Positions 6,001-9,000 of a stretch of 64,000 nucleotides of DNA are shown here, piece after piece. The position numbers are program-made. Location: contig CAWJSJ010000001.1 in NCBI GenBank assembly GCA_963845565.1, positions 448,001 to 512,000 on the forward strand. Reading direction: 5' to 3'. Every line of letters starts with the position of its first letter. Position 1 is the first letter of the stretch. This DNA comes from an uncultured Methylomirabilota bacterium. Its GTDB lineage: Bacteria; Methylomirabilota; Methylomirabilia; Methylomirabilales; 2-02-FULL-66-22.

Positions 6001-9000
6001 CTGCACGACTACGTCGCACCGAAGCGAACGGGTCCGCTGCTGGGGGAGTTCGCCGACGGGGCGGACGGTTTGATCGGTCGCGAAGAGCGGTTGCTCTTCT
6101 CCATGCTGCTCACACCAATTCGAGCCTTCGAGATCGCGGAACCCCCGGGTCCTCGGGGGGTGGCAGTGAAGGATCTGTTGGCGGGATCCGAATGGGTGCT
6201 GGGGCCGCTCGGGGTGCCGGATGGGTTGATCCGGTCCGACGTGTGTATCGGTCGGCTGCTCCCGGTCGGGCGACTCGGGCGGCCCGGGATCGGCCTGCTC
6301 AGGCTTCCGCCGGGAAGTCAAGGGGAGTTGATGGCCTATCTCCGCGCCACCTACCGGTTGTCGCGGGCCGGCCGGCACGTGTCGCTGGAGGATTACGCCG
6401 ACAGGGCGGGGCACCTGTATCACCATTTTTTTCTCGATCGCGGACGAGAACTGGGTGGGCGCGCCCACCGCACCTGTCGATGGACGCCGTTCATCGCCGG
6501 ACAGATCCGGTACCGCGGGGACGAGACAGCGCGTATCCGGGCGGCGTTGAATCGCCAGCCCGAACTCGAACCGGTGACGGACTGGGAGGACGGAGCACGC
6601 TACCTCTGGCTGGACCCGGTGCAAGGCGTGACAGCGGGGACGGTTTGGTTTCGAGGGGACGAGATTCAAGCGTCTGCCGAGACCGAGGAGGATCTGGGAC
6701 GACTGGGCGGATTCCTCGAGTTGTGCTTGCGCGGTCTGGTGCGGCGAGAGCCGGCGGAAGCCGCGCCCACCGCACCCGTTGCTCCGGCAAGTGCGGCGCG
6801 ACACGGGGCGGGGTCGGCAGGAGCGGTCTTCATCCGGGGGTTCTTGGAGCGTTGGCCGGAGATGGCGTCGCCGACGCTCTCCGACGAGACCCCGCGGGAG
6901 GCGTGCCGATCGGCGGCCGGCCGCGAGGCGGTGGTCCAGCTGCTTCTTGGGCTCGAGCGGGACATGGCGCGCCAGAAGCGGCTCGACCGGGCGTGGGGCG
7001 AGATCGGACCGCTCTGGGAACGACTGAGCCTGTCGCCCCCGCCTCCGCAGCACGGATCAGCGGGCGAGGAGCGCGTGCCGTCGGTGACGCCACACCCGAG
7101 GTCGTCAAAACCGAGTGGTGACGGGCGGGCGGGCGGTCGGGCGTCGAAACGGACGTGACGGAGTTGTTTGTATTCATCAGAGGAGAGGTCGCATGGATCC
7201 AGTTCAAGAAGGAGTCGGGGGCGACCCGACGGCGTTCCAGCAACAGGTCGAGGCCGCCTTGGCCAAGGTCCGCCCGGCACTGCAGGCGGATGGGGGCGAC
7301 ATCGTGCTGGTGGCGGTGGATGGGCAGGACGCCCGGGTGCGCCTGAAGGGCGCTTGCCACGGGTGACCAGGCGCTCAGCGGACACTCCAGTTCGGAGTGC
7401 AGCGTTTTCTGCAGCACGAGGTGCCGGGCTTCGGGCGCGTGATCGACGACGCGGAGAACGACGAAGAAGACGAGTGGATTAAGCGGATGTGACGGGACCG
7501 GCGGCGCCTTCGGACGGCGAGGCCTCGTGGGTGTGGCTGTGTGCCACGGCGGGGTGGTCGTGCTCGTGCTCGTGCCAGAGGCCTTCGTGCGCGTGGCGGT
7601 GACGATGGATCAAGTTGGCCGCCCGGAGGATTGTCCGGTTCTGTAGGATGCGCTCGGGAGGATCGGAGGCGAGAATGCGCCGGTCCTCTCCGAACACCAC
7701 CACCCGGCCGGCGATCTCGGGGACGATGTGAAGGTCGTTGGTGGAGGTGACGACGGTTTTCCCCTGCGCCTGCGCCTCCAAGATAAGATCCACCAGGATC
7801 CGGCTGCTCCGGGGGTCCAGACCCGCCGTGGGCTCGTCGAGCAAGAGGACCTGCGGATCCACCGCCAACATCGCGGCCAAGGCGACCTTCTTTTTCTCGC
7901 CCCCCGAGAGCGCAAACGGGGGGCGCTCCGCCAGTCCACGCAGACCGAACCGGTCCAAACCCTCCTGCATCTTCCGGCGCACGGCGTCCGGCGGATCGTT
8001 GAACTGAAGGGGCCCGAAGGCGATCTCGTCCTCGACGGTCGGATTGAAGAGTTGGGCGTCCACATTCTGGAACAGGACGCCGACCTCCTTTCGGAAGAAC
8101 ATCCCAAAGGGATCGCGGGAGAGGAGGGACTCGGTGATCTCCCGTCCGAAAGCCCGATAGCTCCCCTGCTGGGCGAAGAGGAGTCCTGCGAGGAGTTTGA
8201 GCAGGGTGGTCTTTCCGCAGCCGTTCGCCCCCAGCAGGACCACCCGCTCCCCGGTGTCGACCGTCAAAGAGATGCCCGCCAGCGCCGGGATGTCCGGTGC
8301 ATACGCGTAGCAGGCCGAATCCACTTCCAAAAGCACAGACATTGGATGCCATCTCCCCTTCGTGAACGGGATCAGGCGAAGTGCGCTCCGCCGCAGAGGG
8401 CGGCAACCAGCGCCACACATGCCCAATCCCGTAGCGCCAGCGGGCGTCCGGTGGGAACGCGGAACTCGCCCGTGAAGCCGCGCGCCGTCATCGCATCGGT
8501 GACCTCGGTCATCAAGTGGAGGCTCTTCTCCCAGGCGGCGGCGATGCGCGATCCCACCCACATCTGATCCGAGGCGAGCGGCCCCCGACAGATCGTCCGG
8601 CTCTTCTTGCCGAGATGGACCTCCTCTGACTGTCGGAGGAGCAGGTGCAGATAGCGGACGGCCATCCCGGCCGTGCACAGGAAGACGGCCGGGATGCGGA
8701 GCGACCGCAGGGAAGCGAGCAGGGCGGTCCAGCGCGTGGACAGCGTCAGGCACAAGACGGCGGTCACCGAGGCCAGTGTGCGGAGGAGGAACGTCGTCGC
8801 CGTGAGGAGGCCCTCGGCGCTGACGCCGATCGACGCCGGGATGGCATACGGGCCCAGCTGCCGGTCCGTGTCGAAGCGCAGGATGGGCAGGAAGACCTGA
8901 CCGCCGCTCGTCAGGTTGAGGGTGGCAGGGAGGGCCATCAGGGTCGAAAAGAGGAGAGCGATCAGGAGGCCGGCCCCCAGGATCTCGCGTGGGCGGATTC

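Follow-up and report, generated by a model that had tools for sequence, protein, structure and literature searches.

The nfu locus and its neighbours

In this paper we describe a small nfu gene from an uncultured Methylomirabilota bacterium, which most likely encodes a 99-residue Nfu carrier with selenocysteine (Sec) replacing one of the two cluster-binding cysteines. The gene lies in a stretch of 64,000 nucleotides that was analysed as a whole (the window), and its features are collected in Table 1. The reading frame starts with the ATG at 7193 and contains an in-frame TGA. A preliminary description of this DNA had placed the TGA at contig positions 455364-455366, which is correct; the window corresponds to C1:448001-512000, and the offset is 448000 and not 416000. 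The same description had reported an open extension of 41 codons past the TGA, and we again counted 41 open codons. Public gene calls are commonly cut short at this site, as 90 of the 120 best protein matches end at G-A-C-x-G, and these stubs carry either the label NfuA or no name at all.

Table 1. Features of the nfu locus, in positions of the window
Feature	Position	Strand	Basis and remarks
SEC-C-motif protein, 468 aa	5752..7158	+	34 nt 5' of nfu; Pfam SEC-C 20.1 bits, cut-off 20.4
Shine-Dalgarno-like GAGGAGAGG	7180..7188	+	4 nt 5' of ATG; read directly from the sequence
nfu(Sec) coding sequence	7193..7492	+	99 codons including predicted Sec58, translated with TGA=U; terminal TGA stop 7490-7492
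NifU/Nfu domain, residues 19-83	7247..7441	+	Pfam PF01106; AlphaFold; Foldseek PDB matches
TGC, Cys55, opens the C-x-x-U motif	7355..7357	+	Invariant column in alignment A2
In-frame TGA, predicted selenocysteine 58	7364..7366	+	Opposite the second CxxC cysteine of Nfu domains with known structure
Candidate bacterial SECIS hairpin	7383..7399	+	22 nt past UGA; synonymous constraint, bSECIS model fit
Second small hairpin GCAG/CUGC	7399..7412	+	RNAalifold consensus; relevance uncertain
ABC ATPase of a CbiM/CbiQ/CbiO-type transporter	7479..8753	-	Convergent; Pfam ABC_tran; not part of the element

The protein encoded upstream has no match in NCBIfam, and its look-alikes in the atlas bear SEC-C/DUF7986. 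Of the 18 loci in the genus, 13 have a homologue of this SEC-C-motif protein directly 5' of nfu. The neighbour of nfu in this genus is this protein and not an Fe-S gene, an observation that counts against an Fe-S role. A different arrangement is seen in the Sec-form genome G038 and the Cys-form genomes G045 and G046: here nfu lies directly 3' of a class-V aminotransferase (NifS-like), a neighbour that counts for an Fe-S role. At the other end of the gene, the last 14 nt of nfu also lie within the open frame of the ABC ATPase, and CbiQ and CbiM are the next ORFs.

The Nfu domain and its C-x-x-U motif

The product is recognised as an Nfu domain by both profile and structure comparison. The truncation of the Pfam NifU domain at the TGA, which had been noticed before, is repaired on read-through: the 57-residue stub covers positions 1-40 of the 67 model positions of PF01106 with 50 bits, and the read-through product covers positions 1-66 with 80.3 bits (cut-off 27). 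The earlier match to the C-terminal domain of NifU proper and NfuA, obtained with TGA translated as U, was also recovered, and the NCBIfam alignment is confined to those domains. NifU proper (TIGR02000) scores 54.2 bits over model positions 222-287, below its cut-off of 273, and NfuA (TIGR03341) scores 34.3 bits over positions 106-186, below its cut-off of 269. Among the NCBIfam matches of the product (P0001) with E up to 1, there is none to the HesB-like selenoprotein model TIGR01911.

The AlphaFold model of the 99-residue product has a mean pLDDT of 75.5. Its five best Foldseek matches in the PDB are all Nfu domains (2z51, 2m5o, 2jnv, 1veh and 1xhj), with E values from 6e-7 to 1e-3 and TM scores of 0.56-0.70 normalised by query length. 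In 2z51, 2jnv and 1xhj the first Cys of CxxC is aligned with Cys55, and the second Cys of GAC-x-x-C-P is aligned with residue 58. One ligand of the motif G-x-C-x-x-C-P is present as Cys55, and the second exists only if TGA58 is read as Sec.

With the Cys-type single-domain Nfu proteins of PF01106, for example Arabidopsis CnfU (2z51), the C-terminal domain of human NFU1 (2m5o) and S. epidermidis SE0630 (1xhj), the product shares the domain and fold as well as the position of the motif and its flanks, G-A-C-x-G-[C/U]-P. The short stand-alone architecture is also common to many bacterial Nfu proteins. The product differs from the Cys-type proteins in its second ligand, which is encoded by TGA (predicted Sec), in the His that its clade has between the two ligands, in an acidic C-terminal tail and in an RNA hairpin within the codons for T-L-Q-x-G-V. 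The C-terminal domains of NifU proper (TIGR02000) and NfuA (TIGR03341) are homologous to it, but the N-terminal scaffold, BFD and A-type-like domains of these larger proteins are missing.

A motif of this kind raises the question whether the gene could encode a real selenoprotein in which C-x-x-U acts as a redox centre, that is as a selenenylsulfide/selenol couple, and not as a cluster ligand. In this reading a cysteine desulfurase or selenocysteine lyase would supply persulfide sulfur or selenium, which the protein might reduce or carry. Redox-type motifs CxxU or UxxC are found in many catalogued selenoproteins, and according to PMC13188914 most uncharacterised selenoproteins probably have redox functions. 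The NifS-like gene that precedes nfu in G038, G045 and G046 would suit this role. Human NFU, moreover, is reported to have thioredoxin-like activity. The fold, however, is that of Nfu and not thioredoxin-like, the product retains every motif-flanking residue conserved among cluster-binding Nfu proteins, and no conserved redox partner gene lies nearby. We regard a redox centre as rather unlikely.

Sec and Cys forms, the RNA hairpin and the Sec machinery

Our search of the phylum covers 251 Methylomirabilota genomes, beyond the 150 of the preliminary description. A TGA at this exact codon is found in 14 of them, namely in the genome studied here, in 12 congeners and in G038, which belongs to another family. 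A Cys codon (TGC/TGT) is found at the same position in nine orthologues and in a more distant copy in G235, which makes 10 genomes. Sec and Cys forms together give orthologues in 23 genomes, and the claim that orthologues carry either TGA or a Cys codon at one position holds in the larger sample (14 TGA vs nine Cys among the 251 genomes). The protein tree of Nfu needs three Sec/Cys changes, of which at least two are forced, so the Sec state has persisted while families diverged and has been lost on more than one occasion. Among the Sec-form genomes, 10 out of 14 have a His between the two ligands; none of the nine Cys-form orthologues in alignment A2 does.

In metagenomes, a pattern scan found Nfu with U at the site in 72 of 80 loci, and 27 of the 69 Sec-form loci that were parsed are unlike the Methylomirabilota clade. 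The GTDB-wide pattern scan gave one locus with U, from a Methylomirabilis MAG, and 79 with Cys among the best 80 loci listed. In searches of two other phyla no TGA form of nfu was found, with 95 matches in 251 genomes for the phylum of a Nitrospiria MAG and 40 in 401 for that of a Dehalococcoidales MAG. Each of these two phyla had a single match with one TGA, but there the TGA lies 5' of the start codon and the match is no Sec form. Metatranscriptome contigs also span and retain the TGA, one with 0 differences (X1) and one with 11 (X3); they come from two runs of one study, and such libraries can contain DNA. No contig from the RNA libraries bridges positions 7040-7222, from the upstream gene to nfu.

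The frame 3' of the TGA is under purifying selection. In the TGA forms pN/pS is 0.44 downstream and 0.29 upstream of the TGA, compared with 1.30 and 1.60 in the off-frames, and 32-44 codons are open past the TGA in all 14 TGA-form genomes. Within the clade, all 50 distinct sequences have TGA at codon 58. These results bear on the possibility that the TGA is an ordinary stop, which would leave a 57-residue fragment or a pseudogene and an untranslated downstream frame. Public gene calls do terminate at the TGA, and this assembly has a frameshifted selB. But a TGA that is kept throughout the 14 genomes and the clade, with an open and selected frame behind it, argues against termination, and half an Nfu domain, with one ligand and the C-terminal helix missing, would not fold like the family. 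We consider an ordinary stop very improbable.

The preliminary description did not include a SECIS model, and the published model of bacterial SECIS elements (bSECIS) has now been applied. This model describes a loop of 3-9 nt, a stem of 4-16 bp, a G within the first two loop positions, a spacing of 16-37 nt and an MFE of at most -7.5 kcal/mol (PMC13188914, Fig. 2 legend). The candidate hairpin downstream of the UGA fits, having arms CACUCC (7383-7388) and GGAGUG (7394-7399) that form a 6-bp stem around the 5-nt loop AGUUC (7389-7393), with G at loop position 2, a 22-nt spacing and -11.8 kcal/mol. It is found in all 14 TGA forms, at -8.9 to -13.3 kcal/mol. Across the 50 distinct clade sequences the synonymous entropy of the arm codons is 0.34 bits, compared with 1.31-1.33 elsewhere. 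The arms include codons that are rare in this genome, ACA (5.5% of Thr codons) and GGA (12.4% of Gly codons), which are used in 38 and 48 of the 50 sequences respectively; CTC and GTG are used in all 50. RNA-level constraint thus acts on this hairpin.

In the alignment of the hairpin 94% of cells are paired. No covariation was detected on it: none of the pairs is altered in both partners, and the observed value is the same as in shuffles. Folding energy does not distinguish Sec from Cys forms significantly (69 vs 85 loci, Mann-Whitney p 0.27). Cys forms fold as well in the GC-rich subset (-12.8 vs -12.0 kcal/mol), and the low-GC subset is the only one that differs between Sec and Cys forms (-10.4 vs -6.5 kcal/mol). 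Two Cys-form relatives, G021 and G020, have retained the hairpin. An Rfam scan of positions 6500-8500 with E up to 10 returned no SECIS family, chance matches only. A local fold of about 60 nt (-21 to -23 kcal/mol), mentioned in the preliminary description, is no better than its shuffles (z -0.03), and the energy of this fold alone is therefore not evidence. In the second small hairpin one pair is changed on both sides, in two of the 14 sequences.

The machinery for Sec insertion can be recognised in the same genome: selA (578 bits), a Sec-type selD with an in-frame TGA of its own (342 bits) and a tRNA-Sec with anticodon tca (76 bits). Across the genus selA is found in 18 of 21 genomes. The selB of this assembly (contig 4, 5502-7391) is broken by three frame changes in its GTPase domain; it is intact in the relatives G016, G021 and G038, and the frame changes are likely an assembly error. 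That the UGA is read through in some other way, by a near-cognate Trp or Cys tRNA or by suppression, to give Trp, Cys or another residue 58 without selenium, seems extremely unlikely: in a JGI record (P0122) the TGA of the same DNA is rendered as W and a 98%-identical variant (P0003) has Leu at the site, but P0122 reads the terminal TGA as W too and so is simply a table-4 gene call, TGA is the terminal stop of nfu itself, the genus has a complete Sec system, and constraint on the hairpin is what a SelB-dependent mechanism predicts.

A predicted selenium ligand in an Nfu-type carrier

The explanation that we find probable is that nfu is an intact selenoprotein gene and that its product, by analogy with its Cys-type relatives, is an Nfu-type carrier with C55-H-G-U58 as cluster ligands. 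The reading as a selenoprotein, already proposed in the preliminary description, gains support from the alternation of TGA and Cys, the conserved downstream frame, the genus-wide Sec machinery and the bSECIS-type hairpin. The UGA would be decoded as Sec by SelA, SelB, SelD and tRNA-Sec, and the hairpin inside the coding sequence would direct this decoding. The predicted product is a stand-alone NifU C-terminal domain of 99 residues, in which the motif C55-H-G-U58 stands in place of CxxC. In Cys-type Nfu proteins a single [4Fe-4S] or [2Fe-2S] cluster is shared by two subunits. A dimer of the Sec form would, on this analogy, bind one cluster via two thiolates and two selenolates, and the cluster might then be handed to apo-proteins. 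The selenol, being more acidic and more nucleophilic, may alter the lability of the cluster or its tolerance of oxidation. A point against this explanation is that a separate Cys-type NifU adjoins NifS on contig 2 of the same genome.

Sec has been catalogued at other predicted Fe-S sites, in forms 1 and 2 of the (2Fe-2S)-binding CopZ family, in the HgcB ferredoxin and in the Fe-S cluster domain protein NF005503 (PMC13188914, Table 1). In these proteins, as in the Sec-type Nfu, Sec is predicted to take the place of a cluster-ligand Cys, but they belong to different families and use clusters or carry electrons, whereas proteins of the Nfu type transfer clusters. The HesB-like selenoprotein (TIGR01911), a relative of the A-type Fe-S carriers, counts as experimentally verified in that catalogue (PMC13188914). 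It is also small and of the Fe-S-biogenesis type, with Sec for a presumed ligand Cys; its fold, however, is unrelated (PF01521 and not PF01106), and its motif is UxGP as opposed to the CxxU of the Sec-type Nfu. The genome studied here has a HesB-like ORF with a TGA inside the motif QPGUGGP. A broader and more speculative possibility, which we put forward with some doubt, is that Fe-S trafficking in this lineage is partly run on selenium, with Nfu-type and HesB-like A-type carriers both using a Sec ligand. The Fe-Se(protein) bonds might allow faster ligand exchange or better oxidant tolerance, in a separate route alongside the Cys-type NifU/NifS, and several unrelated environmental lineages might have evolved or acquired such a route.

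The preliminary description had called the family absent from the catalogues, and this holds for Table 1 of the 2026 catalogue (PMC13188914), whose 119 families include no NifU/PF01106 row, and for NCBIfam release 20, which has no dedicated model for a Sec-type Nfu. The main texts of PMC12013277, PMC2398784 and PMC5029168, supplements aside, make no mention of it, and full-text literature searches returned no report of a Sec-type Nfu; Deng et al. 2026 and Haft & Tolstoy 2025 lie outside the comparison. Among the published lists compared, Deng et al. 2026 not being one of them, none includes this probable selenoprotein family.

The prokaryotic selenoproteome would gain with it an abundant and widely truncated family, and for annotation we suggest the rule that Nfu calls ending in G-A-C-x-G should be read through. 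Going by family membership, Sec would occupy a ligand position in a protein that transfers Fe-S clusters. The effect of a selenolate on the assembly, lability and oxidative stability of a cluster becomes testable in a natural carrier, for which the Cys-form orthologues from the same genus are natural, ready-made controls.

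Reading frame and ligand position of nfu(Sec)

We confirm the observation of the preliminary description that nfu(Sec), the gene of a proposed 99-residue Nfu-type protein, has an in-frame TGA at its CxxU motif, and we consider it very likely that this codon is decoded as Sec. The genome (G000; 5.36 Mb, 66% G+C, 6 contigs) is annotated with a 57-residue stub that ends at the TGA and matches Pfam NifU (PF01106) with 50 bits over positions 1-40 of 67. Reading through the TGA restores the domain that had been described as cut, with 80.3 bits over positions 1-66 of 67, and the 41 open codons reported between the two TGAs were found again on counting. 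The similarity to the C-terminal domains of NifU proper and NfuA is likewise seen in NCBIfam, as weak matches far under the cut-offs; NCBIfam holds no dedicated selenoprotein model for Nfu. The window spans 448001-512000 of contig 1, so its offset is 448000, not 416000; the contig position of the TGA had been given correctly.

Coordinates of nfu(Sec) and related features (window positions unless a contig is named)
Feature	Position	Strand	Remarks
SEC-C-motif protein gene	5752-7158	same as nfu(Sec)	468 residues; 34 nt upstream of nfu(Sec)
Shine-Dalgarno-like GAGGAGAGG	7180-7188	+	5' of ATG at 7193
nfu(Sec) frame	7193-7492	+	ATG 7193; in-frame TGA 7364-7366 (U58); terminal TGA 7490-7492
His56 codon	7358-7360		after first ligand Cys
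Candidate SECIS hairpin	7383-7388 / 7394-7399 (arms)	+	loop AGUUC; spacing 22 nt; MFE -11.8 kcal/mol
Overlap of nfu(Sec) and ABC ATPase frame	7479-7492		3' ends, convergent
selB	contig 4, 5502-7391		L003, L007
HesB/IscA-like ORF	contig 5, 197910-198101		L055

Residue 58 aligns with the second Cys of G-A-C-x-x-C-P in phmmer searches against PDB sequences (2z51, Arabidopsis CnfU; 2jnv, rice NifU-like domain; 1xhj, S. epidermidis SE0630). An AlphaFold model from 23 orthologues has a mean pLDDT of 75.5 and the order helix-strand-strand-helix-strand-helix, and all five of its top Foldseek matches in the PDB are Nfu domains. A cluster-ligand function of U58 is plausible. His occupies position 56 in 10 of 14 Sec-form genomes, in 86 of 87 short truncated database proteins and in none of the nine Cys-form orthologues of our alignment; other Sec-type metagenome lineages use G, S, N or E instead.

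Sec and Cys forms in genomes and metagenomes

A six-frame search of 251 Methylomirabilota genomes found an orthologue in 17 of the 20 other genomes of the genus, the three without one being 70-76% complete. By script, 14 genomes were confirmed to have TGA at precisely the motif codon, and nine orthologues plus one distant copy have Cys there, which bears out the alternation of TGA and Cys described before on fewer genomes.

Form of the motif codon in Methylomirabilota genomes
Form	Group	Genomes
TGA	window's genus	G000, G016, G009, G013, G008, G019, G010, G014, G011, G018, G007, G022, G017
TGA	another family	G038
TGC/TGT	same genus	G021, G003, G005, G004, G020
TGC/TGT	others	G045, G046, G002, G047
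TGC/TGT	more distant copy	G235

All 14 TGA forms stay open for 32-44 codons after the TGA. Among them, pN/pS is 0.44 for the 25 codons that follow the TGA and 0.29 for the 35 that precede it; the same DNA read in its other two frames gives 1.30 and 1.60. This indicates that the part after the TGA is selected as protein in the nfu frame. A maximum-likelihood tree of 23 proteins (U written as C, about 90 columns, poorly resolved within the genus) requires three changes between Sec and Cys, at least two of which are forced by well-supported branches. The Cys-only outgroups suggest that Sec was gained once, before G038 and the genus split, and lost later. Since 18 of the genus's 21 genomes, all five with a Cys form among them, have selA, the Cys forms are not due to loss of the Sec trait; the sole TGA-form genome without selA, G007, is 68% complete.

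Some sequences depart from both forms. The orthologue-like copy in G041 (L049) lacks both ligand residues (G-N-Y-A-G-R-P) and resembles a degenerate Nfu domain, and both are likewise missing from the copy in the unpublished genome G043 (L043), which we use for no claim. P0003, a protein of 99 residues on a 1404-nt JGI metagenome contig, is 98% identical and has Leu for U58 (GACHGLPGA); this may reflect either a naturally occurring allele that has lost the ligand or an error in sequencing.

The stub is present in NCBI, JGI, ENA and Logan, in a cluster of 33 members. Among its best 120 database hits, 90 stop at G-A-C-x-G, 29 are full-length with CxxC and one (98% identical) has Leu; where names are given, they are NfuA or NifU-like. 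One JGI call with Trp at both TGAs is a table-4 artefact. At the DNA level, the pattern G-A-C-x-G-TGA-P-x-A-x-x-T-L matched 84 metagenome contig stretches. Of the 80 loci that we fetched, 72 code for an Nfu domain whose motif has U, and eight are chance matches. A stricter parser retained 69 loci, 42 of the Methylomirabilota-type clade and 27 others. The latter are 52-75% identical to their nearest reference, in every case a Cys-type Nfu of another group's MAG (Nitrospiria, Omnitrophota, Thermodesulfobacteriota, Fibrobacterota, Bathyarchaeota or Dehalococcoidales), and carry a hairpin of their own at a similar distance, formed by other codons. A second group (L193, L196, L202, L218 and others), about 50% identical, consists of Nfu genes of 72-75 residues with GAC-G-G-U-P-G-A, some on contigs of 200-650 kb; its hairpin, AAUA-A-CCCU / AGGG-UAUU, has one bulged base and falls on the codons of I-T-L-K-Q-G-I. 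The best 80 GTDB loci comprise a single U form against 79 of Cys type, and samples of two other phyla yielded no U form, which speaks against a broad spread among genomes from cultures or bins. In metatranscriptome data of one study, contigs of two libraries span the TGA unchanged; such libraries may contain carried-over DNA.

The candidate SECIS hairpin and the Sec machinery

The bacterial SECIS model in the Fig. 2 legend of PMC13188914 has a loop of 3-9 nt, a stem of 4-16 bp, a G within the first two loop positions, a spacing of 16-37 nt and an MFE of at most -7.5 kcal/mol. The hairpin after the TGA, at -11.8 kcal/mol, satisfies the four constraints of this model. Taken as a whole, the 67-nt stretch folds no more stably than shuffled sequences. 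Rfam gave no match for an RNA element. All 14 TGA forms fold a hairpin at this place (-8.9 to -13.3 kcal/mol), pairing in no fewer than three registers, and we see no compensatory changes in the fixed register. Folding energy by itself does not distinguish the 69 Sec-form loci from the 85 of Cys form (p 0.27); among GC-rich sequences Cys forms fold as well as Sec forms, and two Cys-form relatives (G021 and G020) retain the hairpin.

Stronger support for an RNA element than energy comes from synonymous sites. We used 50 distinct nucleotide sequences of the clade, from 55 loci (14 genome, 41 metagenome), and scored conserved four- and six-fold degenerate codons: 20 upstream of the TGA, four on the arms and 10 elsewhere downstream. 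Mean synonymous entropy is 0.34 bits on the arms, against 1.31 upstream and 1.33 elsewhere downstream, values given without a probability because the sequences are related to each other. The arms use Leu CTC and Val GTG in 50 of 50 sequences, Gly GGA in 48 and Thr ACA in 38; both ACA and GGA are rare in G000, making up 5.5% of Thr and 12.4% of Gly codons. Synonymous constraint confined to the arms is what an RNA structure inside an ORF would predict.

G000 encodes selA (578 bits), selD (342 bits, with one in-frame TGA of its own in A-G-U-A-S-K) and tRNA-Sec (76 bits; anticodon tca by ARAGORN), which adjoins selB. The latter falls into four model pieces in three frames within about 400 nt, affecting the GTPase domain, with one shift at a G-run of the assembly. 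The broken frame reflects either a fault of the assembly or recent pseudogene formation; G016, whose Nfu is 97% identical, G021 and G038 all have an intact selB.

Genomic neighbourhood and place among selenoproteins

The SEC-C-motif protein (440-468 residues) lies directly upstream on the same strand at 13 of 18 loci of the genus. In the window it has an N-terminal SEC-C zinc motif and no other family match; its Atlas look-alikes contain DUF7986 and Xre_MbcA_ParS_C. A convergent CbiM/CbiQ/CbiO-type transporter lies downstream, and the ABC ATPase open frame overlaps nfu(Sec) by 14 nt, too close for a terminator to fit in. The G003/G021 group has ThiS-like, radical-SAM and DUF488 genes as neighbours. 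Directly upstream of nfu in G038 (L044, Sec), G045 (L045, Cys) and G046 (L046, Cys) is a class-V aminotransferase of NifS/IscS type; where these more basal relatives have a minimal desulfurase-Nfu pair, the window's genus has the SEC-C-motif gene instead.

G000 also has, on contig 2, a Cys-type NifU with N-terminal, BFD-like and C-terminal domains adjoining a NifS-like gene. Its HesB/IscA-like ORF carries an in-frame TGA in QPGUGGPKLG and scores under the cut-offs of Pfam Fe-S_biosyn (25.4 bits) and TIGR01911 (31.3 bits). QPGUGGP is the motif of the catalogued HesB-like selenoprotein, so a second type of Fe-S carrier in G000 may use Sec too.

The absence from catalogues claimed for the family holds for NCBIfam and for the table of a 2026 review (PMC13188914), whose 119 rows of prokaryotic selenoprotein families and subfamilies include no NifU, Nfu or PF01106. 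The same review, citing Deng et al. 2026, mentions one Methylomirabilota MAG predicted to have 63 selenoprotein genes, unvalidated new candidates included, and an Nfu family may already be in that list. Neither NifU nor Nfu turned up in a term look-up of the main texts of PMC12013277, PMC2398784 and PMC5029168, and a full-text literature search, judged by titles and abstracts, returned no report of a Sec-containing NifU/Nfu protein. We regard nfu(Sec) as a variant, with Sec for Cys, of a known metalloprotein family; its membership of that family together with the NifS neighbourhood in basal relatives makes it a putative Fe-S carrier.
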